Sequence record: MW057918
DNA: 45,053 nucleotides
Source of the DNA: Escherichia phage Msk
Direction: 5' to 3' (one strand)
The translations under genes and the position numbers were made by a program. Positions 2,907 through 38,283 of the stretch are shown one piece after another. Under the pieces are notes generated by a model that saw only the letters and a list, made by a program, of their open reading frames with translations, was not told where the DNA came from and searched no databases. Numbering within the stretch: position 1 is the first letter of the stretch; each line of letters starts with the position of its first letter.

Positions 2907-3152
2907 ATGATTCGTTTAGAACACACTGGCGCTTGCCTTATCGTTTACAAGGGTGAGAAATATTTGCCTGGTGACACTTTCGAGGTTGATGTAATTTGCG
3001 ACGGACTCAAGCGTTTAATCGCAGAGGGTAAACTCACTATTGAAGGTGACGCTAAAGCAACCAAGCAAATCGCGCAAGAAATTGTTAGCAAGAAAAAGCG
3101 CAAAGAACCGAAAACCATCTCCGAAGCTGAGACTGGTAACGAGTACAAATAA
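2907..3152 (+). CDS. Hypothetical small head/neck-associated protein
   Basis: 81-aa ORF with SD AAAGGAG; Lys-rich C-terminus; in structural module. Confidence 0.4.
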   Translation: MIRLEHTGACLIVYKGEKYLPGDTFEVDVICDGLKRLIAEGKLTIEGDAKATKQIAQEIVSKKKRKEPKTISEAETGNEYK

Positions 3153-3193
3153 CAAACAGGGCGCTTCGGCGTCCTTTATTGTATGGAGCTAAT

Positions 3194-3595
3194 ATGAATG
3201 ATGCAATTTTGGCGTTTATGCGCTCTCTTGTTCCTGCGCTTAAAGCGGTGGATGACGAAGCAATTAATGTATGGATTGATTTGGCACGTCTATATGTATG
3301 CGAAAGCAAGTTTGGCGCAGACAAAGATAAGGCCGTAGGACTTTACGCGCTACACCTGATGCTTTCTGATGGCGCATTTAAGGGTGAGAGTGAAAGTCTG
3401 GAAACATACAGTCGAAGAATGGCAAGTTACGCACTGAGCGGTGAATTCTCTATCACCTATGATAACCAATCAGCAATCCAAGGTGATTTATCATCTTCCT
3501 CCTGGGGCCGCATGTACAAAGCACTGCTCCGCAAGAAAGGTGGCGGCTTTGGATTTATTACTTCCGCTGGTGGCGGCGGGTGCGGTTGCCGATGA
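3194..3595 (+). CDS. Hypothetical structural protein (head-tail joining region)
   Basis: ATG at 3194 preceded by GGAG; ORF track start at 3179 is a TTG extension; Gly-rich C-terminus. Confidence 0.4.
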   Translation: MNDAILAFMRSLVPALKAVDDEAINVWIDLARLYVCESKFGADKDKAVGLYALHLMLSDGAFKGESESLETYSRRMASYALSGEFSITYDNQSAIQGDLSSSSWGRMYKALLRKKGGGFGFITSAGGGGCGCR

Positions 3596-3963
3596 ACTAC
3601 AGCGAAATCGAATCAATCACTCGCTCTGGCATTGACTTCTTTAGTGATGCCAATGGCGTTTATGAAATGAGTACTGGTGATGGATATGTTGAAATCGTTA
3701 ACGGCGTTGAAGTTGAAGTTCCTTCGCAAACACTTCAGCTAAAAGGCTTGGTGCGAGAAATCAAGACGCGAGATATCGATGGCGAGTTTATCCAGTTTGG
3801 CGATAAGCGCGGAATCTTCACGGCACAGGTAGAAATCAAGCAGGGTTATCAGATTAAAGTTGATGGCGAGACTTTTGTTGTTGTTGATCCTCGCCCAGTT
3901 AAACCAACTGGTACAGTTGTTGGTTATAGACCAATTCTTCGTAGGGTGACTACTTATGGCTAG
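3592..3963 (+). CDS. Hypothetical structural protein (head-tail connector/closure candidate)
   Basis: ATGA start/stop overlap with upstream gene; position between capsid and tail genes. Confidence 0.4.
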   Translation: MNYSEIESITRSGIDFFSDANGVYEMSTGDGYVEIVNGVEVEVPSQTLQLKGLVREIKTRDIDGEFIQFGDKRGIFTAQVEIKQGYQIKVDGETFVVVDPRPVKPTGTVVGYRPILRRVTTYG

Positions 3964-4405
3964 TTTTATACCGAAGGCTAATGGCGGGGTTATTGAATTT
4001 AGCCGTTCCATTTCTGAATGGATAGATAAGGTTGAATCTGGAGTTGATGAGGTTGTTGCAGGAACCATTATCAAGACAGCCAAGGGTCTGGTAGATCAGT
4101 CACCGGTTGACACTGGTAGATTTAAAGCCAACTGGCAAATAACAGCAAACTCCCCGGCTCAGCAGTCAGTAATTGACTATGATAAACTTGGAACAGAGAC
4201 CAAAAGAGCACTCGCAAGACAGGCAAGGGCGGTAGCCAGAGCAAAGGGAACAAAGGTCATTTACATAACAAACAGGCTTGATTACTCAATTCACCTTGAG
4301 TATGGCGGCTCGGGTCAAGCACCAAACGGCATTATTAGGATTGTTCAGATGCGGCTTGGTCGATACTTCCAGGAAGCAGTAGAGGAGGCTAAACGTGCAC
4401 TATGA
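3956..4405 (+). CDS. Hypothetical structural protein (tail completion/neck candidate)
   Basis: 149-aa ORF, translationally coupled to neighbours. Confidence 0.4.
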   Translation: MASFIPKANGGVIEFSRSISEWIDKVESGVDEVVAGTIIKTAKGLVDQSPVDTGRFKANWQITANSPAQQSVIDYDKLGTETKRALARQARAVARAKGTKVIYITNRLDYSIHLEYGGSGQAPNGIIRIVQMRLGRYFQEAVEEAKRAL

Positions 4406-4796
4406 ATTGTCTATAGCTGCCAGGAAATATGTTAATGATTTGCTGGTGAGTAGCTTCCCAGTCAGATATCCAGTATCTTGGGAAAACGTTGCTTTCACTC
4501 CTCCAGCAGATGGCTCTATCTGGCTAAAGTATGACTACATCGAGGTTGACACCGTAACATACGGGCTGAGCAGGAAGTGCAAATACTATGTAGGGATGGT
4601 GCAGGTTTCTGTCTTCTTCAGTCCAGGCACTGGCATTGATAAGCCTAGACAAATCGCTAATCGATTGGCAGAATCTATCGTTGATGGTACAATGCTTGAC
4701 AGCGGGACCATTTATGAGTCTGGAGTTGTTAACCCGGTTATCAAATCCAAGTCTGGGTGGTTTATCCCGGTTCATTTTTATGTTCGTCTAGACTAA
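4395..4796 (+). CDS. Hypothetical structural protein (tail terminator candidate)
   Basis: GTG start after GGAGG; overlaps upstream stop; 133 aa. Confidence 0.4.
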   Translation: MHYELSIAARKYVNDLLVSSFPVRYPVSWENVAFTPPADGSIWLKYDYIEVDTVTYGLSRKCKYYVGMVQVSVFFSPGTGIDKPRQIANRLAESIVDGTMLDSGTIYESGVVNPVIKSKSGWFIPVHFYVRLD

Positions 4797-4811
4797 CAAA
4801 AGGAAAAATAC

Positions 4812-5468
4812 ATGGCTCATCTCAGCAATGGCACGCAGGTCTTCGTAGAAGGCTCTCGCGGTGACACAATTGATGTAACTGCAATTTCTAACGCAGCTAC
4901 CCCTGTTTTAACTGTATCTGACGCCTCTGGCTTGGTTGTTGGTGATTACCTGCTTTTCACCTCATCGGCCTCTACACTTCTGGCTGACAAGCAAGTACGA
5001 ATTACTGCAATTTCTGGCACTTCGGTAACAGTTGAAGGTATTGATACCTCCAACACCACTAAGTTCCCTGCTGGCTTAACTGGTGAAGTTGTTAAGATTA
5101 CTTCATGGTTCGAAGTCCCGTGTGTTCAGGACGTATCTACTGACGGCGGCGAACAGCAGTTTGTTAACTTCCAGTGCCTTTCTGATGACCGCGAACAGCA
5201 GATTCCGACTTATAAATCTGCGGTAACAAACACCTTCACCTTTGCTCACGAGTACACCAACCAGGTCTATCCGGTTCTGCGTAACTACGATGAGTCTGGC
5301 CAGGTTGTCGCGATTCGTCTGTTCGTACCTCGCGCTCAGGAAATGCGTTTGCAGTCCGGCACTATCACTTTCAACGACACCCCTACCATTGGTGTTAACG
5401 AGATCGAAACGGTATCCATCGCAGTATCAATTCGTGGTCGCCTGTCCTCTGTAGCAGCTGAAGTTTAA
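4812..5468 (+). CDS. Major tail protein
   Basis: 218-aa ORF immediately upstream of chaperone/tape-measure block, followed by strong terminator; Thr/Ser/Val-rich. Confidence 0.5.
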   Translation: MAHLSNGTQVFVEGSRGDTIDVTAISNAATPVLTVSDASGLVVGDYLLFTSSASTLLADKQVRITAISGTSVTVEGIDTSNTTKFPAGLTGEVVKITSWFEVPCVQDVSTDGGEQQFVNFQCLSDDREQQIPTYKSAVTNTFTFAHEYTNQVYPVLRNYDESGQVVAIRLFVPRAQEMRLQSGTITFNDTPTIGVNEIETVSIAVSIRGRLSSVAAEV

Positions 5469-5474
5469 AACACA

Positions 5475-5498
5475 AACCCTCTTCGGAGGGTTTTTTAT
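5475..5498 (+). terminator. Rho-independent terminator
   Basis: ccctcttcggagggtttttt. Confidence 0.7.
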
Positions 5499-5501
5499 TG
5501 C

Positions 5502-5544
5502 ATAGCACTTTTGCTAAAGCACTTATTCAGCTTTACTGTATAGT
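5502..5544 (+). promoter_or_regulatory. Motif-class promoter (variant ATAGCACTTTTGCTAAAG, 22 bp, TATAGT) driving 5578-5826
   Basis: Motif variant with 4-nt core spacer followed after exactly 22 bp by tatagt and conserved leader catctaaacgaaa. Confidence 0.4.
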
Positions 5545-5577
5545 TATCTCATCTAAACGAAATGAGAGATTAAAGAA

Positions 5578-5826
5578 ATGAATAACGTTAAAAACATCAT
5601 CAAACTTGCTGCAGTTCTTGTTGCTTTTTATGCAGTAGTTCAGATTGTTAACCCAACTGGCGAGGCTGATGCCAATAGCAAGGCAAACAAATATACCGTT
5701 GAGTTCGCTAAAGCTGAGCGAGCATGCCAGGAGCTTGTGGGTAGTAAAGTTGACCAAATCATGAAATATGGCAAAGAGGTCTGCAAGGACTCAGCTGCTA
5801 AGATTGCAAAAGAAAACACTAAGTAA
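5578..5826 (+). CDS. Small secreted/membrane protein with N-terminal hydrophobic segment
   Basis: 82 aa; hydrophobic N-terminus KLAAVLVAFYAVVQIV; own motif-class promoter inside tail cluster. Confidence 0.4.
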   Translation: MNNVKNIIKLAAVLVAFYAVVQIVNPTGEADANSKANKYTVEFAKAERACQELVGSKVDQIMKYGKEVCKDSAAKIAKENTK

Positions 5827-5865
5827 TAGAATACATACTCACAAACAATAAGAGGATTAACTAAG

Positions 5866-6180
5866 ATGGCTAAGTTCAAACTTTCACTGGCAGCACTCCC
5901 TGACTTCAAGCTTCCGGTAAAATTCAAGCTGGCTAACGACCAGGATGTAGAGGTTATCTTTACAGTCAAGCATAAGAAAACATCTGAGCTTCAGGAGCTT
6001 TTGCAGAAAGAAGACTTGAGTACTAAAGAATTGATTATGGCAATCGCCTCTGATTGGGATTTGGAAGAAGAATACAACGAGGATAACGTTAATGAGTTCT
6101 CCGACCTGTTCCCAGCGTCAACAGTTGCACTGACTACCGCTTACATGCAGGCACTGGCAGGCCAGCGGGTAAAAAACTAA
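5866..6180 (+). CDS. Tail assembly chaperone (lambda gpG-like)
   Basis: 104-aa acidic protein directly upstream of tape measure gene; ends at slippery AAAAAAC. Confidence 0.6.
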   Translation: MAKFKLSLAALPDFKLPVKFKLANDQDVEVIFTVKHKKTSELQELLQKEDLSTKELIMAIASDWDLEEEYNEDNVNEFSDLFPASTVALTTAYMQALAGQRVKN

Positions 6181-6500
6181 AGAGGGCGGTGTATCTACAG
6201 TACCAGTCAGATCCAACAGATGCCGAACTGGAAGCTATTGGGATGCGCCGCTCTGATTACGAAGACGAAGAGCCTGAAGTTTTGCACTTCGACGATAACA
6301 TGATGAAGGCGTGGGACATTTATTGTTCAATGGCGACACAGTGGAGAGTCGGAGCCAACGGACCAACGGGCCTAGATTACAACGTGCTAAATTTCCTCTT
6401 TAGAGTGTATAATGTTTCTGAAGAGGAATTGGTACTCAGCGATTTACGCATCCTTGAAGCTAAGGCTCTCGAGATGATGGATAACCTGATAAAAAAATAA
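6171..6500 (+). CDS. Tail assembly chaperone frameshift extension (gpGT-like, -1 frame)
   Basis: A AAA AAC heptamer at 6171-6177 immediately before stop; -1 frame open to 6500. Confidence 0.5.
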   Translation, partial: KKLKRAVYLQYQSDPTDAELEAIGMRRSDYEDEEPEVLHFDDNMMKAWDIYCSMATQWRVGANGPTGLDYNVLNFLFRVYNVSEEELVLSDLRILEAKALEMMDNLIKK

Positions 6501-6523
6501 CCCGCTTCGGCGGGTTTTCTATT
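6500..6523 (+). terminator. Hairpin/attenuator before tape measure gene
   Basis: cccgcttcggcgggttttctatt. Confidence 0.4.
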
Positions 6524-6535
6524 ATGGAGGCTTAG

Positions 6536-9514
6536 ATGGCAACAAATGAATTAGCTGGAATCACACTAGCCGTAGACGTCTCGCAGGTAGACAGAGGTAC
6601 GCAGTCCCTGCAGAAGTTCAGGCAGGCAAACCAGCAAGCCGCTTCCGGCATTAGTGAGTTCGTCAATGCTGAGCAGGTTGCTAAAAACCAGGCTAGAGAT
6701 ACCGCTCGCGCACTTGCTGAGCAACAAGCATCTTTAGCTAAATTGCAAACGGCTATTGACCCAACTGCGGCAAAGTTCCGTAAGCTGCAAGAGGCAGCGG
6801 TGGGTCTTGATAAGGCGTTTGCTGCTGGCGTAGTTCCTGATGAGGAGTTTTTCCGCTTAGGTGAGGCACTTGAAACGCAGAACGCAAAACTTGCTCGATC
6901 ACGTGCAGCGCTAACTGAAGAGGGTAGGGCAGCAGCTCAAGCCGCAAAGGATAAGGCAAAGGCAAAGGCTGAAGCTGATAGGTTCATTGCGTCACTTGAG
7001 CGTCAGGCTCAGGCGGCAACATTGACGCGTGAGGAGTACTTAAAATTACAGGCTGCTCAGCTTGGCGTAAGTTCTCAGGCAGCGCCTATTATTGACAGAA
7101 TCGCCGATGCATCACAGAAGGCAAACACCCAGCTAATTGCTCAGAGCAAGGCATTTCAACGCTCTGGATTAAGCGCGGGTCAATACAAGGCTGCAATCTC
7201 TCAATTGCCAGCGCAGATTACAGACATTGGGACATCACTTGCTGGCGGCATTCCGATTTGGCTTATTGCAATTCAGCAAGGCGGGCAAATTAAGGATGCA
7301 TTTGGAGGTATTGGTAACACCTTTAGATTCGCGCTAGCAGCCTTAAATCCATTCAATGTTGCTGTTGGGGTTTTGGGTGGCGCGCTTGTTGCTCTAGGTA
7401 TCGGTGCTGCCCAGGCAGAGAGTGAATTCAGAGCATTAAATTCTGCCATTGCGTTCTCAAACAACTCCACAATCGCATCAATCTCGCAGGTTAGAGATTT
7501 GGTTAGCTCTGTTTCTGATGCTACTGATGCAACCAGAGGACTTGTGACTAGCATCGCAACAAGCCTTATTGAGCAAGGGAACCTTACGCTGACGCAGATT
7601 GACAAGATTACTAAATCTACCGCCAGATGGGCGCAGTTGACAGGTAAGGATGCAAAGGAAATTACTGGTTACTATAACCAGATTGCGAGCGACCCAATTC
7701 AAGGACTTGCTGATTTAGACAAGAGGTTTAACTTCCTTACACAGGGGCAGTTAACAACAATTGAAAGATTGAGAGAGACTAGGGGTGAGGTTGAAGCCGT
7801 AACTGCTGCTATTGATATATTTAGCAAATCACAGGAGGCAAACCTTAACGATATTGCAGCCCAGCTTACTCCTCTTGAATTGGCCTGGAATGACTTCAGG
7901 AAGTACATATCTGATGTATGGGATGCAATTAGTCGCAGAACGGTTGGGGCGCTAAACCTGTTTGTTGACGTAATCGCCGGAACAATTGAGCAAATTAGGG
8001 TCTTCATCAACCAGGGTGATGTGCTGATTGGTGAATTCGTAATTAGCGCAACACAGGCACTGCAGAACATCCCCGGCCTTGATGGTGTTGGTGATGATGT
8101 TATCAAGGGGCAGCAGAAGATTATCGATGCAGCTAAGAAGCAAAACATTGAGCTAGAGAAGTCTATCAAGGAGCGCGATGCCAGAATCAGAGAAGGAGAA
8201 CTTGGTTACGTTACTCGCAGAGAAAATCAGAATACCAATGAGCAGTCAGGCACTGATGAGGAGTTTGCAAAAAGGAAGAAAGCACTTCAGGATGAACTTG
8301 ATGCGATCAAGAAGAACAGGAAAGAAGAAAATGGTAGGGTTAAAGAGCAAAGAGACCTTACAATTGGTTACGAATCTGGCGTACTTGCACTACAGGCACA
8401 ACTCAAGGTGCTTCAGGAAAACAGGGATATTGGCGCAGTAATAAGCAATGAGCGCAAGCAGTATCTTCAGGAGGAGGCTAAATTCAGGATTCTTGAGCAG
8501 AGGCAACTTGATGGCTCAATTACCAAAGAGCAAGCAAGGCTTCTAATTGAAAAGGATAAAGTTCTTGCACTCGCAAGGCAGAAAGCTGAGTTAGGCGATC
8601 AGATTGTTTTGCAGGAGCGCGCCAATAAGTTAGCTGAAGATAACCGCAAGAAGATTCTTCAGATTAACAACGAAGCAAGCAATATTAATTTGGGGGCTGG
8701 TTTGTCATCTCGCGAGCAGCAGAGGGCAAGAGAGATTCAGGCTCTCCAGTCCAATCAGGTTAATGCTGGTGGCTCTCTTGATGATTTTGATTTTCAGCAA
8801 TTACTGGAAGCAAGAAAGGAATACTACAAGCAGGAGGATAATCTTAGGTCTGATTGGCAAGCTGGCGTAACATCAACGCTTGCAGACTTGGCTGAGAAAT
8901 ATACAGACTACAATCAGATAGCTAAGGATTTAACTGTTGCGGCATTCGATGGAATTACAGACCAGATTACAAACCTTGTAACCACTGGTGAGACCAACTT
9001 CAGGGAGTTCACCGCAAACATCCTCAAAATGATTGCGAAGATTGCAACTCAGTTACTTTTGGTTAAGGCCATCGAATCAACATTGACTAGTTTTGGTGGT
9101 GGAGGAGGTAACGCGTTTGGCTCAATTGCTTCCGGGTTAGGTTTCGCTGGTGGCGGCTACACTGGTGATGGTGGAAAATATCAGCCAGCAGGAACGGTAC
9201 ACCGAGGTGAGTTTGTATTCACAAAAGAAGCGACAAGCAGAATTGGTGTGAAAAACCTTTACGCACTAATGAAAGGTTACGCGAATGGCGGTGTTGTTGG
9301 TGGCCCTTCTGGTTATGCGAATGGTGGATTGGTTTCTGGAGGCGCAGATGTTAATGTTAGCGGGATTACTGTTAGCGTTAATAGTGGGATTGGAAGCAAC
9401 CCAGAGCAGGCCAAGGCGCTGCAAAATGGCGTTAAGGCAATCGTAGCTGAAGAGATTGCTCAGTCATTCCAGCAGGGGGGCAGAGCTTATCAGTACCTTC
9501 GCGGATTCAACTAA
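6536..9514 (+). CDS. Tail tape measure protein
   Basis: 992-aa ORF, long coiled-coil-type low-complexity regions, Gly-rich C-terminal segment, canonical position after G/GT. Confidence 0.8.
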   Translation: MATNELAGITLAVDVSQVDRGTQSLQKFRQANQQAASGISEFVNAEQVAKNQARDTARALAEQQASLAKLQTAIDPTAAKFRKLQEAAVGLDKAFAAGVVPDEEFFRLGEALETQNAKLARSRAALTEEGRAAAQAAKDKAKAKAEADRFIASLERQAQAATLTREEYLKLQAAQLGVSSQAAPIIDRIADASQKANTQLIAQSKAFQRSGLSAGQYKAAISQLPAQITDIGTSLAGGIPIWLIAIQQGGQIKDAFGGIGNTFRFALAALNPFNVAVGVLGGALVALGIGAAQAESEFRALNSAIAFSNNSTIASISQVRDLVSSVSDATDATRGLVTSIATSLIEQGNLTLTQIDKITKSTARWAQLTGKDAKEITGYYNQIASDPIQGLADLDKRFNFLTQGQLTTIERLRETRGEVEAVTAAIDIFSKSQEANLNDIAAQLTPLELAWNDFRKYISDVWDAISRRTVGALNLFVDVIAGTIEQIRVFINQGDVLIGEFVISATQALQNIPGLDGVGDDVIKGQQKIIDAAKKQNIELEKSIKERDARIREGELGYVTRRENQNTNEQSGTDEEFAKRKKALQDELDAIKKNRKEENGRVKEQRDLTIGYESGVLALQAQLKVLQENRDIGAVISNERKQYLQEEAKFRILEQRQLDGSITKEQARLLIEKDKVLALARQKAELGDQIVLQERANKLAEDNRKKILQINNEASNINLGAGLSSREQQRAREIQALQSNQVNAGGSLDDFDFQQLLEARKEYYKQEDNLRSDWQAGVTSTLADLAEKYTDYNQIAKDLTVAAFDGITDQITNLVTTGETNFREFTANILKMIAKIATQLLLVKAIESTLTSFGGGGGNAFGSIASGLGFAGGGYTGDGGKYQPAGTVHRGEFVFTKEATSRIGVKNLYALMKGYANGGVVGGPSGYANGGLVSGGADVNVSGITVSVNSGIGSNPEQAKALQNGVKAIVAEEIAQSFQQGGRAYQYLRGFN

Positions 9515-9544
9515 TTAATGGGGCTTCGGCCCCTAAGGATTTTT

Positions 9545-9895
9545 ATGGCTATTGATACTTTTAACTGGTGCACGCAGATTCAGGGCGGGTCCGCATCTTT
9601 CAGTAACACAAACAACGTCCGCATTGTTAGCTTCGGTAATGGTTATGAGGCTAGAGGCACTGGCGGTTATCGCAGCAATAAGCGCAGCTACCAGATGACC
9701 TACACTAACAAGGACTGGAGAGATGTGATGGATTTCTGCCTCAACCACATCATTACCCCGTTCTTCTGGACTACGCCGCAGGGCGACACATCCATGTTCG
9801 TTATTCAGCAGGATAGTATTAGCGTTACACCAGTCAGTAAGGAAGTTCAGACTGTAAGCATGCAATTCGTAGAAGTATTTAGTTCAATGCGTTAA
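9545..9895 (+). CDS. Minor tail protein (lambda gpM-like)
   Basis: ATG at 9545 with AAGGA SD; about 117 aa, first gene after tape measure as in lambda M-L-K-I-J order. Confidence 0.5.
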   Translation: MAIDTFNWCTQIQGGSASFSNTNNVRIVSFGNGYEARGTGGYRSNKRSYQMTYTNKDWRDVMDFCLNHIITPFFWTTPQGDTSMFVIQQDSISVTPVSKEVQTVSMQFVEVFSSMR

Positions 9896-9898
9896 ACT

Positions 9899-9922
9899 AA
9901 GCCCCTATGCGGGGCTTTTTTA
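9899..9922 (+). terminator. Rho-independent terminator/attenuator
   Basis: agcccctatgcggggctttttt. Confidence 0.5.
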
Positions 9923-9934
9923 TTGGAGAAATAT

Positions 9935-10690
9935 ATGCTAAGTTCAAAGTTTGAAAATCAGTTGCAAAGCCTTTTCCCTGGCGAGATTGTGACGCTAATC
10001 CAGGTTGACGGAACCTCCTTCGGAAGTCTCGTTTACAACTTCCACAATGAGAACATTTCATACACGCCAGAAGAGATTATGATGGCTCAAATGAATGGCG
10101 AGCCACTACCAGAGAAGACTATTACATTTCGTGGTGAAGAGTATGGCCCCAGACCTTTTGGTATCTCGGGCATCAATATGACCTCTGACGGCAAGGCCAA
10201 CAAAGTTACGCTAACAGTATCAAACGTAGACCAGCGAATTAGCGCATTGATTCGAACATACAACGGACTTGTTAAAGCTAAGGTTACCATCTGGATTACT
10301 ACGCGAGACAACATCAACGAAGATGGAAGCATTGCTGATGGGGACTATCGCAGATTTGTTTACTTCATTGAGCGACCGAAGCAGGTTGATTACAAAACCG
10401 CATCATTTGAGCTAAGTAGCCCAATGGATATGGATGGCATTTACATCCCAGCGAGACCTGTTCAGTCTGTTTGCTATTTCGCCTCTAGGGGCTGGTATCG
10501 AAGTGGTAATGGTTGCACCTATGCTGGTAATAGATATTTCGACAAGGATGATAATCCAGTGGCGGACCCTTCATTAGACTTCTGTGCGGGGACTGTCAAT
10601 AGCTGCAAAATCAGGTTTGGTGAGAATAATCAGTTAGATTTCGGCGGTTGCGCTGCCGCAAGCCTTCAGGCTAAAGCCAACCAGAGTTAA
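9935..10690 (+). CDS. Minor tail protein (lambda gpL-like)
   Basis: ATG at 9935 after GGAGAAA; C-terminal Cys cluster as in gpL Fe-S region; position. Confidence 0.55.
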   Translation: MLSSKFENQLQSLFPGEIVTLIQVDGTSFGSLVYNFHNENISYTPEEIMMAQMNGEPLPEKTITFRGEEYGPRPFGISGINMTSDGKANKVTLTVSNVDQRISALIRTYNGLVKAKVTIWITTRDNINEDGSIADGDYRRFVYFIERPKQVDYKTASFELSSPMDMDGIYIPARPVQSVCYFASRGWYRSGNGCTYAGNRYFDKDDNPVADPSLDFCAGTVNSCKIRFGENNQLDFGGCAAASLQAKANQS

Positions 10691-10700
10691 GGGGGAGCAA

Positions 10701-11459
10701 ATGTTAACACCAAAAGTTAAGCTGCAAATATTCCAGCATGCAAAAGAAGTTTACCCGCACGAATGTTGCGGGGTTGTAACGCAGAAGGGCCGAGTCCAGA
10801 AATACCACAGAATCACCAATGCCAGTAAAGACCCAGAAAATGAGTTTATCCTTGATTCAAATGATTATTCTGATATCGCATTTGGCTTAGCTGACAATGA
10901 GTCAATTGTTTACGTAGTTCACTCCCACACGGGTGATGGAGTCACAACAAGACCTAGCCCAGCGGATATTTGCAGCTGCAACGAGTGTGAGATTCCTTAT
11001 GTTATCGTCAGCATTCCGGAGGGAGATATGCGCATCCTTGAGCCATCATCTATGCCACTGATTGGTCGCCCGTGGGGGCTTGGTAGCTTTGATTGCTGGG
11101 GGCTTGTGATGGAATTCCACAAGAAATACGGAGTAAAACTGAATGACTACCGCGTCAATTACCCGTGGTGGGAGAAACGGTACAATGAAAATATCTATGA
11201 CGACAACTGGATTAAGGAAGGATTTGAGCTGGTAAAAACTTCAGATATTCCTATTGGCTCGATGATTATGATGCAGGTGCAAAGCGAGGTGACAAACCAC
11301 GCAGGAATCTACATTGGCAATAACAGATTCATTCATCACCTTTATGGCAAAATGAGCTCCGTTGATATCTACTCCGATTACTGGCGAGAGCGCACAGTGC
11401 GAATCGTTCGCCATAAGGATTTACCAGAGGATGTAATTTATGACCCAGAAACTGATTGA
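10701..11459 (+). CDS. Tail tip assembly protein (lambda gpK-like; JAMM/MPN plus NlpC/P60-type domains)
   Basis: HSHTGDG...S..D JAMM-like motif and Cys/His-containing peptidase-like region; position. Confidence 0.6.
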   Translation: MLTPKVKLQIFQHAKEVYPHECCGVVTQKGRVQKYHRITNASKDPENEFILDSNDYSDIAFGLADNESIVYVVHSHTGDGVTTRPSPADICSCNECEIPYVIVSIPEGDMRILEPSSMPLIGRPWGLGSFDCWGLVMEFHKKYGVKLNDYRVNYPWWEKRYNENIYDDNWIKEGFELVKTSDIPIGSMIMMQVQSEVTNHAGIYIGNNRFIHHLYGKMSSVDIYSDYWRERTVRIVRHKDLPEDVIYDPETD

Positions 11460-27294: not shown

Positions 27295-27343
27295 AAATAG
27301 CACGAATTGCTAAAGAGGAATCGGTGAGGTGGTGTATTATCAC
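27295..27343 (+). promoter_or_regulatory. Motif-class promoter copy 2 of duplicated block, driving 27377
   Basis: Near-identical to 27085-27150 (aaatagcacgaattgctaaag...tattatca...catcgaaacga). Confidence 0.5.
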
Positions 27344-27376
27344 TTCATCGAAACGAGACGCAGAGAGAGAAATAAA

Positions 27377-27571
27377 ATGTCTACTATCTTTACTGGTAAA
27401 ATCTACGAATCACGCAAAACTGGTTACGAGTATGAATTAGTAATCACCGCTGATGGTTATGTTCTTGACGATGGTGAAGGTTATTCTTTCGAAGTCAGCC
27501 CAACCTACAAAGATGATTTAGAAACTGTTAAAAACGAATTTGGCGAAAAATTTGATGAGATATCTGAATAA
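27377..27571 (+). CDS. Hypothetical small acidic protein
   Basis: ATG at 27377 after AGAGAGAAATAAA; ORF-track 5' extension would overlap the promoter. Confidence 0.45.
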   Translation: MSTIFTGKIYESRKTGYEYELVITADGYVLDDGEGYSFEVSPTYKDDLETVKNEFGEKFDEISE

Positions 27572-27789
27572 TGCAAATCTTAACCTTTGACAAACAATGG
27601 GAGCTATTTCAGGCAATGGCGGTTCAGGAGCTACACAATGCTGGTTATAAAGGTGACTCATGGTTTTTAGCAGGATGCCTTGATTACAGCTTTGAAGAAG
27701 ATTACTTGCGAACGGACATCGAAACATGGCGCGAACGCATGGTTGCAGACATTGCAGAAATGAAGAAAGATATCCCGGAGGATTTTTAA
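27571..27789 (+). CDS. Hypothetical protein
   Basis: 72-aa ORF coupled by ATGA-type overlap. Confidence 0.4.
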   Translation: MQILTFDKQWELFQAMAVQELHNAGYKGDSWFLAGCLDYSFEEDYLRTDIETWRERMVADIAEMKKDIPEDF

Positions 27790-27868
27790 CAATGAAAATC
27801 GTAGATAAAGAGATTTTCCAGATTGCTCAAATTTATGCGAAGCAAGCAGTTAGAGATAATGACAATTA

Positions 27869-28162
27869 TTGCTGGATGCTAGCAAAAGAGTATATAAAAA
27901 TGGCTTATGGCTTATGATAGTTGAAACCGGACGAGACGCAGTATGGGCGCACTGTGGAGAGGCGGGGTTGCAGGATGACATTAAGCAGATATCCCGCTTC
28001 TTTGACATAAAAGATATCAGCGTTGTGTTTAATGGTAAATTCTCTTACATGGATGAGCGACCAAGAAAATACGTAAGAGTTAAGCCAGGTGTGAGAATTG
28101 ATGTTAATGAGTTCCTTAAATCAAAGGGACTCAAGTTTAAGATAACGAATCCTAAGGATTGA
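27869..28162 (+). CDS. Hypothetical protein (true start may be the internal ATG near 27913)
   Basis: 97-aa ORF; alternative coupled start downstream. Confidence 0.35.
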   Translation: MLDASKRVYKNGLWLMIVETGRDAVWAHCGEAGLQDDIKQISRFFDIKDISVVFNGKFSYMDERPRKYVRVKPGVRIDVNEFLKSKGLKFKITNPKD

Positions 28163-28313
28163 TTATGAAGCCACAAGAATATTCAGCATTGGTTAACGGG
28201 TTGCTTGATATTTCTATAAAATTCAAGGACACGCAGCAGTTAAGAGAGCAGCTATCGCGAGAACTATCAAGGCATGGTATTAGGCCGAGACATAAGATGA
28301 AAAAGGATTAAAC

Positions 28314-28565
28314 ATGTTGGGTTTAGATTTTCAGCCAGATCATTATGATTTAGTTCATGGCAGTAGCGGTGCTAAGTTTAGGGCGATACCTATTGCTGAT
28401 TGGTTCCCACCTGATTATGTGGATGTTAATGCTAAGACGAAGGATGGTAAGTGGGTACATATTTACTACTCGCCAGCTTGCGGTAATCTATGCATGACAG
28501 ACCTGGACCAGAAATTAGCAATTAGTGCGGATTTAATTGATTATTGGTTGAAAGAGGTTGTATGA
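28314..28565 (+). CDS. Hypothetical protein
   Basis: 83-aa ORF. Confidence 0.4.
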   Translation: MLGLDFQPDHYDLVHGSSGAKFRAIPIADWFPPDYVDVNAKTKDGKWVHIYYSPACGNLCMTDLDQKLAISADLIDYWLKEVV

Positions 28566-28646
28566 AGTACGCCGCCCTAGTAGCATTAGTACCACTGTTT
28601 AGCTTTACTATCTTATATTTTATCGTGATGAACTAAGGACTTAAAA

Positions 28647-29777
28647 ATGGCAGTAGCAAAGATTACCAACGAGCAGCTTATCGAAGAGTTGAAAAATGGC
28701 ATGACTAACAAGGCGATTGCAGAGAAGTATGGCATGAACATTCGCAACGTCGAGCTTCGTCGCAGCAAGTTGGCTAAGAGTGGAGTTGGGCATGGTAATG
28801 AGGGTATCAATAAGCTAGTACCGGATGGATATTTAGTCAAGGGCACTTCAACCATGATTGATGCGGAAGGGAATGAGAAGCTGCGCTGGGTTAAGACGAG
28901 CGTTGATAATGAGCGCCTTGAGGTTTTAATGGAGCAAGCTCGAGAAGCGTTTTGCTCTGAGTTGCCAAAGGCAGATTCGGTCAACCACTCAGGTAATGAG
29001 GTCAATTCTGAATTAATGACTCTTTACCCGATTTTCGATATCCATATCGGCATGATGGCTCATCGACATGAGTCTGGTGAAAATTATGACACGAACACAG
29101 CAGAGAAATTGATGGGGTCATATTTTGACCATGCAATTTCTGTATCACCAGCCTCGGAGAAAGCCGTGATTTTAGTTGGCGGCGACTTCCTTCACTCTGA
29201 TGGACTGGAGGCTGTAACCCCAGCAAGCGGACACTGCCTTGATCAAGATAGTCGATATGCCAAGTTAGTTTATGTAGCAATTCGATCAATTCGCGGTGCG
29301 GTAGAGAAGATGCTTAAGAAACACAAGGAGGTCGAGATTCAAATCATAGAGGGCAATCATGATCAAAGTGGTATGATTTGGCTTCGCGCTGCAATGGCTG
29401 CATTTTATGAAAGAGAGAGTCGAGTGTTTGTTGATACCAGTCCGGCAATCATGCACAAGACGCGATTTGGCTCAACATTACTTGGTTACACGCACGGTCA
29501 CACGATGAAGAAAGCCGAGGGTCGACTAGCAGCAATGGCGACCGACTACCGCAAAGACTTTGGTGAATGTGAGTTTGTTTACTGCCACTCCGGCCATTTC
29601 CATCATGCAACTGTTACAGAGTGCACTCTTGGGATTGATGAAGTCCACCCTGCACTTGCTAGCAAGGATGCATATGCGGCACGGGGAGGGTGGAGATCAT
29701 ATCGACAAGCGGCTGCAATTATTTACCACAAGAATTTTGGCGAGGTTGGTCGACACATTTATCGCCCAGGTATGTAA
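28647..29777 (+). CDS. HTH domain fused to calcineurin-like metallophosphoesterase
   Basis: N-terminal MTNKAIAEKYGMNIRNVELRR HTH-like; MPP motifs DIHIG, GGDFLHSD, EGNHD, GYTHGH, GHFH. Confidence 0.6.
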   Translation: MAVAKITNEQLIEELKNGMTNKAIAEKYGMNIRNVELRRSKLAKSGVGHGNEGINKLVPDGYLVKGTSTMIDAEGNEKLRWVKTSVDNERLEVLMEQAREAFCSELPKADSVNHSGNEVNSELMTLYPIFDIHIGMMAHRHESGENYDTNTAEKLMGSYFDHAISVSPASEKAVILVGGDFLHSDGLEAVTPASGHCLDQDSRYAKLVYVAIRSIRGAVEKMLKKHKEVEIQIIEGNHDQSGMIWLRAAMAAFYERESRVFVDTSPAIMHKTRFGSTLLGYTHGHTMKKAEGRLAAMATDYRKDFGECEFVYCHSGHFHHATVTECTLGIDEVHPALASKDAYAARGGWRSYRQAAAIIYHKNFGEVGRHIYRPGM

Positions 29778-29851
29778 ATAGTACTTTTTGTTAATAAAGC
29801 CTCAAAGGATTGAGGCAAAATGAATAAACGATAAAGAGATGAGGAATTGTA

Positions 29852-30325
29852 ATGATTTACGTATTTGATATCGATGGAACTATAGCTAATAATGAGCATA
29901 GAAGTAACCTCTTGCCATTCAGCGACCTTCACTTGACTTCAAGTTGGAAGGATTACAATAAAGCCTGTTCTGGAGACTCACCAATAATTCCAATGATAAA
30001 CATGATGAATACGTTATCCGACTCATCGCCAGTTTACATCATGACCTCAAGAAGTGATGAAGTTGAATGGAGGACTCTTGAGTGGCTTAAGGATAATGAG
30101 GTTGAGTATGATTCGATATACATGAGAAGTCGATATGACAACCGAAAAGATTACAAAATAAAAGAGGAATGGCTTAATGAAATCAGTGGTGGCGATAAAA
30201 GCAATGTGATTATTTTTGAAGATAACCCACAAGTAATTAAGCACCTAAGAAGTTGCGGATACACCGTTATGGCTGTATGTGAATATGAAGACCTACCTAA
30301 AGACTGCGAATCTCACGGAGAATGA
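29852..30325 (+). CDS. HAD-superfamily phosphatase (T4 Pnk 3'-phosphatase-like / nucleotidase)
   Basis: Motif I FDIDGT at N-terminus; C-terminal FEDNPQV...GY pattern resembles T4 Pnk phosphatase domain end. Confidence 0.55.
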   Translation: MIYVFDIDGTIANNEHRSNLLPFSDLHLTSSWKDYNKACSGDSPIIPMINMMNTLSDSSPVYIMTSRSDEVEWRTLEWLKDNEVEYDSIYMRSRYDNRKDYKIKEEWLNEISGGDKSNVIIFEDNPQVIKHLRSCGYTVMAVCEYEDLPKDCESHGE

Positions 30326-30879
30326 AAATGACTAAATTATTTATCCTTAATGGCCCAGCTGGAGTTGGCAAGGACACTATAGCGGATATGATGGTTGAGA
30401 CTGGTGTCGCAAAAGAAAAGGTATCATTCAAGTCACCAATATTTAGAGTTGCAAAAGGAATGCTATCAAGCGATGAATTTGATGAATTCATCAAGAATTA
30501 CGACAATAGAGACTATAAGGAATCACCTCATAGATTTCTTGTCGGTATGACAGTTCGTGAATTTATGATTTGGATTAGCGAGTCTGTAATGAAGCCAGCC
30601 TTTGGTGATGATGTTTTCGGTAAAAGGCTAGCGCAGTCACTTGGTGATGGCTGCTACATTTGCGCTGACGGTGGATTTGCTAGCGAGATTAAGCCACTGA
30701 TCGACGCTGGTGTTGAGGTCACGTTAATCAGATTGCATAGGGCAGGGTACACATTTGATGGCGATAGTCGCTCATACATTCACGGGGTGTGCGCAAGAGA
30801 AATTGATGTTCGTGTTGTTGATTGTGATATTAATGGAACATCAGCATTGGTAAGGCACGTAATAAATAGCACAAATTGA
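30322..30879 (+). CDS. P-loop kinase, deoxynucleoside-monophosphate-kinase-like
   Basis: Walker A NGPAGVGKDTIAD resembles T4 gp1 dNMP kinase P-loop SGVKRSGKDTTAD; 4-nt overlap with HAD gene. Confidence 0.45.
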   Translation: MKMTKLFILNGPAGVGKDTIADMMVETGVAKEKVSFKSPIFRVAKGMLSSDEFDEFIKNYDNRDYKESPHRFLVGMTVREFMIWISESVMKPAFGDDVFGKRLAQSLGDGCYICADGGFASEIKPLIDAGVEVTLIRLHRAGYTFDGDSRSYIHGVCAREIDVRVVDCDINGTSALVRHVINSTN

Positions 30880-30950: not shown

Positions 30951-31127
30951 ATGACTAAAATGATTTATTGCACCAAAAACAACTCCAAGACTCTGCCATT
31001 TACAGTTAACCAGCCGTACAACGCAGAGTACCAGGGCGATGGATATTACAAGATTTATGGAGACGATATGACGCACATCTTAGCGCCGATTGATGGTTCG
31101 TTGGTTGAATTTATTATCGCTGACTAG
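30951..31127 (+). CDS. Hypothetical small protein (58 aa; not in ORF track)
   Basis: ATG with GAGGAAA SD downstream of motif promoter; translation done by eye. Confidence 0.35.
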   Translation: MTKMIYCTKNNSKTLPFTVNQPYNAEYQGDGYYKIYGDDMTHILAPIDGSLVEFIIAD

Positions 31128-31152
31128 CGCAGCAAAAACATAATGTTACGAA

Positions 31153-31180
31153 CGGGGAGCCTTTTGGCTCCCTTTTTTTA
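31153..31180 (+). terminator. Rho-independent terminator
   Basis: ggggagccttttggctcccttttttt. Confidence 0.7.
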
Positions 31181-33101: not shown

Positions 33102-34685
33102 TCACCCCAGCAGTCGTGGATTAATGTAAACTTTATCACCAATCAGGCACGTATAGTTTTTCTCATCAAGCATTGGTAGTAAGTGGTCTTTAATCTTCGT
33201 CATTACTCCCGCTTGACCCTCGAACGGCTTAACCTTGCGAGCAGCTTCATATAGAGACCGGATGCCTACTACGCCTTTCCCATTTTTTACTTGCTTAATC
33301 AGAATATCAATCAGCTTATTCATCTCTGCATTGTCGCCAGCGTGACCCGCAGCGTTGGCAGATGACAAATAAGTCTTGCTAAGTTCCTGGAACATAATTA
33401 CAGCTTCCTGCATTGTATCAAGCTCAATTTCTCTCGACTTCTGAGGGCTACCGCCATTTGGGTTGAACCAGTTACGCACAGTGTGAAGAACCGCCGCAAT
33501 CCTGATTGCCTGCTTATCGAACTTACCCAACGCGCCTCGCAACATTGTGTGTGAATACTTCCCGCCGTCAGCAAGGTGCGGTTCCATTTCCTGACGAGCG
33601 CGGTTGAGATATTTCATTGCTGAATTACTAACTGTCAACTTAACTTCTTGCTCATTCATTATCTCGTGAACTAAACGGAAGTAATCAGCCTTCAACCCGG
33701 CATCAATTGGCTCATAAGTCGATTCGCCATTTTCATCAACGAATACACGCTCGCCCAGGAGTGACTTTTCACGTACAAGCAGGAAACGCTCAGATACACC
33801 GATACCACGCGCGCCAGCGTTCATGATAGCGTTGATTGTCTCATCCTGCGCAATTACAGAGATGCAACCCATAGCTACGAAGCTCATGTTGTTTTCAGCG
33901 TTAGCACGAGCGATAGATACGTTGCCAGCATCCCATGCCTTCAGTACAAGCTCGCTGTTCGTTTTCTTTGATCCGTCACCATAGGTCATGCCAAGTAGTG
34001 AGTTTACACTCGTTGCCTCATCCGAGATTACTGCAAAGTTACCCTGACGATTGTTTATTCGCGCAAGACCTTCCGGTGTGGTATCTGAAACCGGGAAAAC
34101 GATATCGCATAGTTTCTCGAGCTTTTCCTCAAGATCTTCTTTCTCCTCAAAAAGCGATTTCATCTCAGATGGTGACTTTTCCTGCTTCATCTCTTTGGAT
34201 AACGCAGATAGTTTAGCCATAATCTTTTTGCGCTCGCGCTTTCGAACTTCATTCAGTCGCTGAGTCTCGGCAATCATTGGCGCAATAGAAAGTGAGTTAA
34301 TTGCTGATTTACCAGTCGATGGTGGCTGACTCGTTACGACGTAAAGCGAGGTTGGCTGCTGAGTTCCGTGATACTCTACGGTAAAACGTCCAAGCATGGC
34401 AGCGGAAATACACCCCAGGAAGTGCATGTATGCGGACGACTCCGGGAATTGCACGCTCCGAGCAATGTTAGCTGACAGCTTACCAACAACATCAATATCA
34501 TTTCCGAGTGATATTACAGGGTACTTATCATTTGCCGCATCAATCTCGACAGGAGCCTTCCAGAATGATTGAGACTGGCGATAGCCATTTGCATTAATAG
34601 CGACGCGCAAAGGTGGAAGGTTGTCTGCGGCAGCAATTGCCATAACCTGTTCAACAGATAGTTTATCTTCGTTGAAATCAAACAT
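33102..34685 (-). CDS. P-loop NTPase of unknown function (possible replication-associated ATPase, DUF3987-like)
   Basis: Walker A-like SQPPSTGKSA and Walker B-like FAVISDEATS; N- and C-terminal segments duplicated in pseudogene 37864-38283. Confidence 0.4.
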   Translation of the reverse strand: MFDFNEDKLSVEQVMAIAAADNLPPLRVAINANGYRQSQSFWKAPVEIDAANDKYPVISLGNDIDVVGKLSANIARSVQFPESSAYMHFLGCISAAMLGRFTVEYHGTQQPTSLYVVTSQPPSTGKSAINSLSIAPMIAETQRLNEVRKRERKKIMAKLSALSKEMKQEKSPSEMKSLFEEKEDLEEKLEKLCDIVFPVSDTTPEGLARINNRQGNFAVISDEATSVNSLLGMTYGDGSKKTNSELVLKAWDAGNVSIARANAENNMSFVAMGCISVIAQDETINAIMNAGARGIGVSERFLLVREKSLLGERVFVDENGESTYEPIDAGLKADYFRLVHEIMNEQEVKLTVSNSAMKYLNRARQEMEPHLADGGKYSHTMLRGALGKFDKQAIRIAAVLHTVRNWFNPNGGSPQKSREIELDTMQEAVIMFQELSKTYLSSANAAGHAGDNAEMNKLIDILIKQVKNGKGVVGIRSLYEAARKVKPFEGQAGVMTKIKDHLLPMLDEKNYTCLIGDKVYINPRLLG

Positions 34686-36640: not shown

Positions 36641-36970
36641 ATCTATACCCTCGTTGTTGGTGAGTTAACTATAGCCTCGCCACCAGCACATGTCTTTAGC
36701 AAAAAGTGCTATTCATTAGATTTATGTATTGTTGCATATATTGCAATGATTCACATGATTATTGCACATACAGCAATATTGCTTCAGATGCAATGATGTT
36801 TTTGATTGTTGCGGATTGAGCAATTAAGTGGTGAGTGAGTGAATGAAAGATGGATGGACTACCATACAAGTTGATTTTGATTCTTGCTAAGCTACTTTCA
36901 CGCATACACGTTATAAAAGTTATGCCGTGTAGATGCGCCAGCTCCCCGTTGGAATCATGTACGTCTATCA

Positions 36971-37073
36971 CGCTAAATTACGCAATGGTTACATAATAAT
37001 ATCTATATATATCAACCATTTAGTACTATTATTATTATTATTATTATATACGCGTATATAATGTATATAGTGG
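36971..37073. repeat. AT-rich intergenic block with (TTA)6-7 microsatellite and TATACGCGTATA palindrome; homologous to 17611-17706
   Basis: Shared tatctatatatatcaacc-(tta)n block; palindrome atatacgcgtatat seen directly. Confidence 0.6.
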
Positions 37074-37342
37074 ATATTGGATATTGCGATAGTTTTCTAT
37101 GATTTTTTCCTACAAGTGTAGGAATTGGATGACACTGTAGGAATAAATAGGCATATATGGGCCAATGCTCCATGAAAGCCGATGTACAAGCTATACGCAG
37201 TGGTTACATTGAGCTATATCTGGGGTTTGGAACTGAAAAGCGTAAATAAATTGAATTCAACCATAAATAACAATTGATAACATGTAACCTCAATGATACC
37301 ATGCACCCATCTTAACGAGAGCAACCAATCAGGAGTATATCT

Positions 37343-37864
37343 ATGTCAAATCGCATTCAACCAGTAAGCCTTGGTGATGTTATCCGCTACATGGCTAAGC
37401 AGGCACTTAAGGCCGACAACAGGACTTTTCATGCTCCAATCAATCTTATAGCTCGCCAGGTTTACGGGCTAACGTCTGATGATATGGGTCGAATCAGCGC
37501 TGAGGATCTAGATAGTGGTGGCAAATACAGCCTGGCAAAGCTGAAGGCTTCATATGTCTCTAACACGGTTGCCAGGATGCCAGAAATTCAGGCGGCGAAC
37601 GTTCGGGCTAAGCTGTCAATCAAGGACGGAGACTTCGGGGATGATGTTGATGTTCGATGCGCATACATCACCTTGGTTGATGGGGCAATACAAACGGGAA
37701 GGAGAGTTAAAGCCAACAATCAGATTGCACAGAATGCGGTGAACGACTTCAAGGATAGAATCCTTAAGCTGATGCCATCTGTGACAGATTTTGAAGGAGA
37801 TGAGATTACAGGAGCAATCAAAGCAATCAAGATGTACCAAGAAATGATTAAGGAGACAAAATAA
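37343..37864 (+). CDS. Hypothetical protein
   Basis: 173-aa ORF, first gene after large AT-rich intergenic region. Confidence 0.45.
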   Translation: MSNRIQPVSLGDVIRYMAKQALKADNRTFHAPINLIARQVYGLTSDDMGRISAEDLDSGGKYSLAKLKASYVSNTVARMPEIQAANVRAKLSIKDGDFGDDVDVRCAYITLVDGAIQTGRRVKANNQIAQNAVNDFKDRILKLMPSVTDFEGDEITGAIKAIKMYQEMIKETK

Positions 37865-38283
37865 TGGGGATGTTTGATTTTAACGAAGATAAGCTGACTG
37901 ATGATGAGATTATGAAGATTGCCATGCGGGACGGGCTTCCACCGCTGCGGGTTGCTATCAATGCCAATGGCTATCGGTAATCACAGAGATTCTGGTGCAG
38001 TGTTGAGGAGTTGCTAAGCACAAAACTCAGCAGTAAGTTAGGTGTGGTTGTGCGCAAGATTCACGGTCAGAGCAGGAATGGTAAAGGGGTTGTAGGTATT
38101 CGATCAACATACGAAGTGCTGAGAAAGGTCCAGCCATTTGCAGGACTCGGCGGGGTCATGTATGACATGAAAAACAACATCCTGCCATCGCTACAGGACG
38201 CGGGAATCATCTGCTTAATAGGGGATAAGATTTACGTTCATCCATACGTAGTGGGCATGCATGCGATAGAAGTTGAAGAGTAG
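37864..38283 (+). pseudogene. Nonsense-mutated, internally deleted paralog of the 33102-34685 P-loop ATPase gene
   Basis: N-terminal 38 codons match MFDFNEDKL...PPLRVAINANGYR of the large gene then TAA where the large gene has Gln; same frame continues into a C-terminal segment matching NGKGVVGIRS...CLIGDK(V/I)Y. Confidence 0.6.

Follow-up and report, generated by a model that had tools for sequence, protein, structure and literature searches.

What would an enzyme of the metallophosphoesterase (MPP) superfamily do in a phage when a helix-turn-helix (HTH) domain is joined to its N-terminus? The question is raised by a gene at positions 28647-29777 of the window, the whole stretch of 45,053 nucleotides of Escherichia phage Msk (sequence record MW057918) that was analysed. 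An initial annotation of this DNA had described an HTH-like segment ahead of a full set of MPP motifs, considered the fusion atypical, and placed several activities side by side: a Ser/Thr phosphatase, an Mre11/SbcD-type nuclease, or a phosphodiesterase degrading the nucleotide signals of host defence. A nuclease-type MPP is favoured here, and the explanation that we put forward, with about even confidence, is that the protein is a DNA-directed nuclease or end-processing enzyme. This reading is drawn from the profile matches of its family, which among MPPs reach Mre11 and the MPE nuclease only, from an alignment with T4 gp47, from the histidine of motif II, and from a recurrent basic HTH. It also draws on an invariant active site, on the functional category given to the phage protein families PHROG 704 and PHROG 284, and on neighbouring genes for a 3'-phosphatase and a deoxynucleoside monophosphate (dNMP) kinase in three phage groups.

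Domains, active site and family of the HTH-MPP protein

The gene and the parts of its product are located as follows.

28636..28639, plus strand: ribosome-binding site AGGA, 7 nt 5' of the ATG, read from the sequence; annotated as a ribosome-binding site in PQ659294.1 at 36918-36921
28647..29777, plus strand: coding sequence with an ATG start, 376 aa plus stop, from the list of open reading frames (ORFs); the HTH-MPP protein
28647..28781, plus strand: tri-helical HTH domain (residues 1-45; helices 8-16, 21-27 and 32-44; net charge +4), from the AlphaFold2 (AF2) model and family profiles
28782..28820, plus strand: flexible linker (residues 46-58), where the predicted local distance difference test score (pLDDT) of the AF2 model goes down to 62-67
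28821..28958, plus strand: family-specific module of a β-hairpin and a helix (residues 59-104), from the AF2 model and conservation
29004..29774, plus strand: MPP catalytic domain (residues 120-376), from motifs, AF2 fold and relatives

The coding sequence is identical (100%) to positions 36929-38059 of PQ659294.1, the genome of the T1-like siphovirus vB_ecoS_OzMSK; the window carries this published genome in rotated form. Its product there, XLM52772.1, is labelled in GenBank as [quoted passage not shown], and the paper on phage OzMSK does not mention the gene. The gene is an ordinary member of a catalogued phage family, in a genome that has already been deposited and annotated.

The catalytic domain has an intact active site. 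In the AF2 model, which was built with the family alignment and has a mean pLDDT of 92.8, residues 120-376 form the two-sheet MPP β-sandwich, and all five metal-binding motifs of the superfamily are present: motif I is D131-x-H133, motif II G179-D180-x-x-H183-x-D185, motif III G236-N237-H238-D239, motif IV H283, and motif V G316-H317-x-H319. Every string quoted by the initial annotation was found in the ORF (DIHIG at residues 131-135, GGDFLHSD at 178-185, EGNHD at 235-239, GYTHGH at 280-285, and GHFH at 316-319), and its description of an HTH-like segment followed by a full motif set agrees with the HTH and the sandwich of the model. Conservation was measured on an alignment of the window protein with 99 diverse relatives (30-57% identity). 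D131, H133, G179, D180, D199, N237, H238, H283, G316, and H319 are invariant across these 100 sequences, and H183 (97%), D185, D239, and H317 (98%) are at least 90% conserved. The domain also carries a conserved insert, VTPxSGHxLDxDxR (residues 190-203), whose D201 and R203 are likewise invariant or nearly so. Since the metal ligands are invariant or nearly invariant, the motifs can be taken as functional signatures and not as chance matches, and the invariance of the catalytic residues argues that the enzymatic activity is under selection.

The Pfam model Metallophos (PF00149) does not match the window protein even at E <= 1, so the MPP assignment is based on the motifs, the fold, and the relatives, 25 of 100 of which are matched by that model (E <= 0.01). 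A search of the PDB with the single protein sequence returned nothing at E <= 10, and NCBIfam gave sub-threshold traces only. Judged from these profile searches, the family is a divergent MPP branch that Pfam Metallophos barely reaches.

The HTH-like string MTNKAIAEKYGMNIRNVELRRSKLAK corresponds to residues 19-44. The HTH helices are modelled with a pLDDT of ~95 (residues 11-40), with low confidence at about residues 45-60; an AF2 model of residues 1-120 built without an alignment reached a pLDDT of 58, too poor for a fold search. A Pfam search with the single protein placed GerE, HTH_28, and HTH_24 over the N-terminus at a sub-threshold E of ~0.2. Among 100 relatives, HTH_1 was matched in 25, HTH_8 in 21, Sigma70_r4_2 in 13 (best E 1.5e-9), and GerE in 6 (best E 2.4e-8). 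When the family profile was compared with the PDB, the best match was GerE (E 0.027, residues 7-60), followed by more than ten HTH structures of the LuxR/FixJ type. As judged by profile comparison, the HTH assignment is thus weak for the window protein alone and solid for the family.

The HTH is kept in ~93% of relatives and is always basic, with a median net charge of +4. Its median identity to the window protein is 19% in the 100-sequence alignment, the corresponding values being 48% for the hairpin (residues 59-87) and 39% for the MPP domain. This predicted DNA-binding domain is the only recurrent fusion partner of the family MPP, and no fusion with another type of domain was seen. Two longer relatives, P0221 (482 aa) and P0162, have two tandem N-terminal HTHs. 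In Salmonella phage 36, Jk06, and Klebsiella phage KB2 (Q45PV2, A0A0N7CGC6), the HTH and the MPP appear to be on separate fragments, or the gene to be broken into several ORFs, which may reflect frameshifts, insertions, or annotation errors.

The module that follows the linker consists, in the AF2 model, of strands 62-71 and 77-86 and helix 88-103, with a second linker before the MPP sandwich. The hairpin is the most conserved stretch outside the active site; G75, W81 (96%), and K83 are conserved, and the consensus of the module is PDGYxVKGxSTxxDxxGxxxxxWVKT. No Pfam model covering it was found in the window protein or in the 100 relatives scanned.

An HTH that diverges fast yet is retained would be expected if its DNA targets were lineage-specific, and the matches of relatives to Sigma70 region 4, GerE, and LysR-type models go down to E 1.5e-9. 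These observations would suit a bifunctional or mainly regulatory protein, in which the HTH is a sequence-specific regulator of transcription or replication and the MPP an accessory or sensing module. Its targets might, for example, be the late or lysis genes that follow, as the gene lies immediately 5' of the lysis cassette in T1-like phages. We consider such a protein improbable, because all catalytic residues are invariant, a strong terminator lies between the MPP transcription unit and the holin gene, and the proximity to the lysis genes is not kept outside Drexlerviridae.

The fusion, which the initial annotation had called atypical, turns out to be a standard architecture. The protein matches PHROG 704 ("DNA repair exonuclease") over its full length (E 4.3e-151; residues 4-376 aligned with positions 2-388 of the 390-position profile). 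By tblastn, relatives were detected in 2017 phage records, with coverage of 80% or more in 1946 of these, from phages of Escherichia, Klebsiella, Salmonella, Vibrio, Rhodobacter, Ruegeria, and other hosts. An exhaustive search gave 4648 representative clusters (50% identity, E <= 1e-3), mostly of 370-420 aa. The full-length match and these counts make the HTH-MPP fusion the rule of a very large phage family and not an oddity. The PHROG 704 family spans T1-like, Jersey-like, and K1G-like phages, and the gene is also common in Vibrio phage and roseophage groups. PHROG 704 and PHROG 284, a sister family, are placed in the DNA/RNA metabolism category, each as an exonuclease; the name "DNA repair exonuclease" has been propagated and is consistent with the fold evidence.

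A scan of genome contigs returned only two loci, L005 and L006, in a "Bacillota bacterium" metagenome-assembled genome and a Nitratidesulfovibrio assembly. Because the DNA of both resembles that of T1-like phages included in a bacterial or metagenome assembly, they are uninformative on cellular homologues. Near-identical T1-like genomes are also on record under the names "Campylobacter phage A110b" and "Pseudomonas phage PsgS01F" (records MG065688.1 and PP134917.1). These records and contigs with odd hosts are probably coliphage contamination or carry mis-assigned hosts, which would fit the name that T1-like phages have as contaminants of laboratories.

The gene is persistent in 508 of 522 Drexlerviridae (PMC13164509), unlike typical accessory anti-defence genes. 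This bears on the proposal, raised by the initial annotation, of a phosphodiesterase that destroys the immune nucleotide signals of CBASS, Pycsar, Thoeris, or type III CRISPR systems. The proposal gained no positive support: no PADLOC match was obtained at E <= 0.1, no phage MPP linked to anti-defence was found in the literature searched, and none appears in the main text of the EVADES compendium. An HTH carried by nearly all members would also be of no obvious use to a soluble signal-degrading enzyme. An anti-defence role of this kind is, in our view, distinctly improbable.

Which branch of the MPP superfamily?

Of the activities named by the initial annotation, the Mre11-type nuclease is the one that gained and the Ser/Thr phosphatase the one that lost. 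When the family profile was compared with all PDB sequences, the only MPPs reached were Mre11 (E 0.03-0.1) and the MPE nuclease. The top Foldseek match of the AF2 model is Mre11, and NCBIfam gave a trace of one model alone, PdeM, an endonuclease linked to DNA damage. By hhalign, the family aligns with T4 gp47 over 183 columns that include motifs I-V (E 1.1e-4, probability 56%). T4 gp47 is annotated as SbcD-like and as needed for recombination and host-DNA degradation. The same comparison with the lambda phosphatase (NinI) gives a probability of 0.9%.

An enzyme like NinI, a protein phosphatase of the lambda type (PPP, Ser/Thr/Tyr), would share the superfamily motifs; the NinI gene likewise stands just 5' of the late/lysis region, and the GenBank label reads "putative phosphatase". 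Homology to this type of enzyme was looked for through GDxxDRG, GNHE, and similarity to the lambda profile. None of these marks of PPP membership was found in the window protein, and its motif II differs as well. We regard a protein phosphatase as very improbable, the most remote of the explanations considered here.

The DNA-directed nuclease that we favour would be a stand-alone binuclear (Mn2+/Mg2+) MPP of the DNA-nuclease branch (PolD-DP1/Mre11/SbcD-like). The N-terminal HTH and the short flexible linker would tether the catalytic domain to duplex DNA, with the basic recognition helix (residues 32-44) docking the protein. The catalytic domain would cut phosphodiester bonds at nearby ends or nicks, acting as a 3'->5' exonuclease and/or an endonuclease and releasing 5'-dNMPs. 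The motif-II histidine (GDFLH, compare GDLFH in Mre11) and the TPxSGHxLDxDxR loop may contribute to substrate handling. We infer DNA as the substrate, this polarity of cleavage, and a role in DNA breakdown or end processing during infection, for example in the degradation of the host chromosome or the trimming of replication and recombination intermediates.

Neighbouring genes in this phage and across relatives

The features that surround the gene in the window are listed below.

27329-28565: six small ORFs between the VRR-NUC and MPP genes; four match PHROGs 6031, 2676, 2817, and 4596 (unknown function)
29852..30325, plus strand: stand-alone HAD 3'-phosphatase of the Pnkp type, 157 aa; Pfam HAD_PNKP, E 1.7e-16
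30322..30879, plus strand: P-loop kinase of the T4 gp1 dNMP-kinase type, 185 aa; PHROG 139, E 1.6e-41
within 30951-31173: DUF7244 (SH3-like) ORF, 58 aa, between kinase and holin
31154..31173, plus strand: intrinsic terminator (8-bp GC-rich stem and T7), from a terminator scan; the first strong plus-strand one downstream and the strongest of the region
33102-34685, minus strand: T1 gp09-like "putative ATPase", 527 aa; DUF3987, E 1.7e-41

The gene belongs to a transcription unit that runs rightward, in which it is preceded by a helicase, a VRR-NUC protein, and the six small ORFs. Five of these ORFs were tested and none showed a Pfam family above threshold; the one at 28159-28311 has only a weak PHROG match. 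The terminator scan found no plus-strand terminator-like site between 28647 and 31154, so that the unit closed at 31154-31173 holds the genes of the MPP, the phosphatase, the kinase, and the DUF7244 protein, with the lysis cassette after it. The MPP and phosphatase genes are 74 bp apart, and the space between them contains a perfect 7-bp hairpin, GCCTCAA-AGGA-TTGAGGC, at 29799-29816. This hairpin has a terminator score on the minus strand only, where no gene ends, and on the plus strand A-rich sequence follows it; its function may be in RNA stability or processing.

The two genes downstream were identified from their own families. The HAD family profile aligns with the phosphatase domain of T4 Pnkp at a probability of 97.4% (E 1e-11). 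The kinase, whose start overlaps the stop of the phosphatase (ATGA), belongs to a family that aligns with T4 gp1 over 138 columns (probability 90%, E 1.6e-6), whereas with T4 Pnkp a 23-column P-loop alone aligns. The possibility that the pair is a split polynucleotide kinase/phosphatase was rejected on this basis. T4 gp1 is annotated as phosphorylating dNMPs.

These neighbours would permit a specific nucleotide-salvage line, in which the co-transcribed 3'-phosphatase unblocks 3'-phosphate ends, the MPP frees 5'-dNMPs, and the gp1-type kinase makes dNDPs. Such a scheme matches T4, where gp46/gp47 are annotated for host-DNA degradation and gp1 for dNMP phosphorylation. It also matches the nucleotide-supply role that the authors of PMC13164509 independently suggested for the kinase genes. 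The same paper describes the DUF7244 SH3 protein as part of the shell of the Drexlerviridae lysis module, and only seven cases were found there in which the SH3 protein, the phosphatase, and the kinase occur together as they do in this phage. We consider the salvage role less likely than the broader reading of a DNA-directed nuclease or end-processing enzyme.

Neighbourhoods were analysed in 249 fetched loci. The phosphatase-kinase pair stands directly downstream of the MPP gene in 31 of 83 T1-like loci, in K1G, and in PP99. The block MPP-phosphatase-kinase has the same order and orientation at 28647-30879 of the window, at 5001-7167 of the K1G locus (L002), and at 4007-6324 of the PP99 locus (L088), with overlapping start and stop codons. 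It therefore spans three unrelated groups, Drexlerviridae, Kagunavirus, and Autographiviridae, and looks like a horizontally mobile module. In the Kagunavirus K1G the block is a separate reverse-oriented cassette within the tail genes; in the T7-like Pectobacterium phage PP99, genes for a 5'-3' exonuclease and for endonuclease VII precede it, and the DNA ligase gene follows.

The surroundings vary more widely in the rest of the family. The MPP gene precedes the lysis genes in T1-like phages and follows them in Rhodobacter phage RcLkye. Its neighbour is an HNH gene in a Vibrio phage and ribonucleotide reductase in RDJL Phi 2; in SETP3 it is alone with Ant, in a cassette that, as in K1G, is placed within the tail genes. 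In marine contigs of ~80 kb the gene is flanked on one side by lambda L/K/I-like tail genes and on the other by an ORF longer than 1600 aa (with a J-like N-terminus in L139). In five IMG/VR loci (L139, L161, L131, L155, and L153; ~49-83 kb, some with 65-67% GC), the MPP gene directly follows the tail-tip genes on the same strand, in a region around 3100-11200 of each locus. In this clade the long ORF comes next and runs off the locus, and the MPP, an enzyme, is encoded within a tail module. BLAST clustering of the neighbours revealed no partner gene conserved across clades. Together with the variable position, this marks the HTH-MPP protein as functionally autonomous.

The Pnkp-type neighbour brings in a further explanation, an end-healing enzyme in counter-defence or repair. 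Here the MPP would strip 3'-phosphates, 2',3'-cyclic phosphates, or adducts from phage DNA or RNA cut by host nucleases, working with the Pnkp-type 3'-phosphatase, and a host or phage ligase would seal the ends. The product of the downstream gene is clearly homologous to the 3'-phosphatase domain of T4 Pnkp, and in the PDB it is matched best by Pnkp1, a protein of RNA repair. A DNA ligase follows the trio in PP99, and in K1G and SETP3 the MPP gene is in a moron-like cassette adjoining a superinfection-immunity gene. Bacterial Pnkp itself heals ends via an MPP domain with 2',3'-cyclic phosphodiesterase activity. That domain, however, belongs to the lambda-phosphatase branch, to which the HTH-MPP family has no affinity by hhalign. 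The kinase partner is of the dNMP-kinase (T4 gp1) type and not of the polynucleotide-kinase type, no RNA ligase is annotated in this phage genome, and the phosphatase and ligase neighbours are missing in most family members. End healing is thus unlikely, even if it comes closest of the alternatives.

The cassette-like variable location may leave room for a host-directed or counter-defence role. In that case the protein would be a mobile, HTH-guided, host-acting effector moved between genomes as a cassette, and not a housekeeping exonuclease, which we judge rather unlikely. Such an effector would be either a site-directed nuclease starting the destruction of the host chromosome or a counter-defence enzyme removing nuclease-made end blocks or nucleotide signals, and in both versions the fast-evolving HTH would set lineage-specific targets. 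The older T1 literature describes a classical phenotype of host-DNA degradation and transduction for T1 "gene 2.5", and a site-directed nuclease could be the function behind it.

Several observations weigh against a DNA-directed nuclease as set out above. The phosphatase-kinase pair is absent from 52 of the 83 T1-like loci and adjoins the MPP gene in none of the ~150 loci of two divergent environmental clades (marine/alphaproteobacterial-type), in which one HAD and one kinase match were found, in different loci and neither next to the MPP gene. Because most of the family lacks the pair, the core function cannot be defined by it; the two genes are an addition found in some enterobacterial phages. 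Accessory genes, more typically than genes of the replication module, vary in position as the MPP gene does. In the model comparisons, the fold scores do not separate nucleases cleanly from small-molecule phosphodiesterases, as MJ0936 (13.9), LpxH (13.6), Rv0805 (12.3), and GpdQ (12.1) are close, and the profile alignment with T4 gp47 reaches a probability of only 56%. The AF2 model has no Mre11/SbcD capping domain, the last MPP strands being at residues 355-372 of 376. No gene for a Rad50/SbcC/gp46-like ATPase is present in the 45-kb genome, and none recurs in ~250 related loci. Our literature searches found no experimental study of any member of the HTH-MPP family, and the exonuclease label is a propagated one.

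The value of the locus lies in the size of the family, its persistence, and the ease of testing, and not in any surprise at the locus itself. The gene is among the most persistent non-structural genes of T1-like phages and bears a purely inferred name, and a function assigned to it would carry over to thousands of genes in other phages. Knowing this function could also help to explain how host DNA is degraded and nucleotides are reused by T1-type phages, a process that bears on their potential for generalized transduction; these phages are notorious as contaminants in laboratories and are candidates for therapy.

Comparison with known enzymes

Among the closest known enzymes are Mre11, SbcD, and T4 gp47. 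Motif II of the window protein, GDFLH, is of the Mre11 type, GDLxH in the T. maritima alignment, and not the GDxxDRG of the PPP enzymes. Identity to these proteins is only 13-18%, and they lack the N-terminal HTH and the hairpin module. With neither the capping domain nor a Rad50/SbcC partner, the window protein falls outside the canonical Mre11/SbcD type. The only large ATPase that could be a candidate for the missing partner, the T1 gp09-like "putative ATPase", was rejected, being a DUF3987 protein. We found no paper that describes an architecture of HTH, hairpin, and a partner-less Mre11/DP1-like MPP.

A second point of comparison is DP1, the small subunit of PolD and an archaeal 3'-5' proofreading exonuclease, together with phage proteins that are auto-annotated as "DNA polymerase II small subunit". 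The window protein differs from DP1 in having neither an OB-fold nor a DP2/polymerase partner, with an identity of 14%. T1-like phages encode no DNA polymerase. MPE/PdeM, the ligase-associated Mn2+-dependent single-stranded DNA endonuclease, is likewise a stand-alone MPP nuclease without an ATPase partner. Weak local matches to it occur near motif III (NCBIfam E 0.0015; PDB 6nvo E 0.47), with the window protein falling below the curated cut-off (150 bits) of the PdeM/MPE model TIGR04123, and its ligase context is resembled by the PP99 locus.

Lambda NinI and the PPP phosphatases belong to the same superfamily, and NinI is likewise a phage-encoded MPP ahead of late genes. They differ from the window protein in having no detectable profile relationship to it, a low structural rank, and another motif II. 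By comparison with the PHROG 704 family itself no difference was seen: the window protein has the same length, HTH, hairpin module, and MPP motifs and is a typical member.

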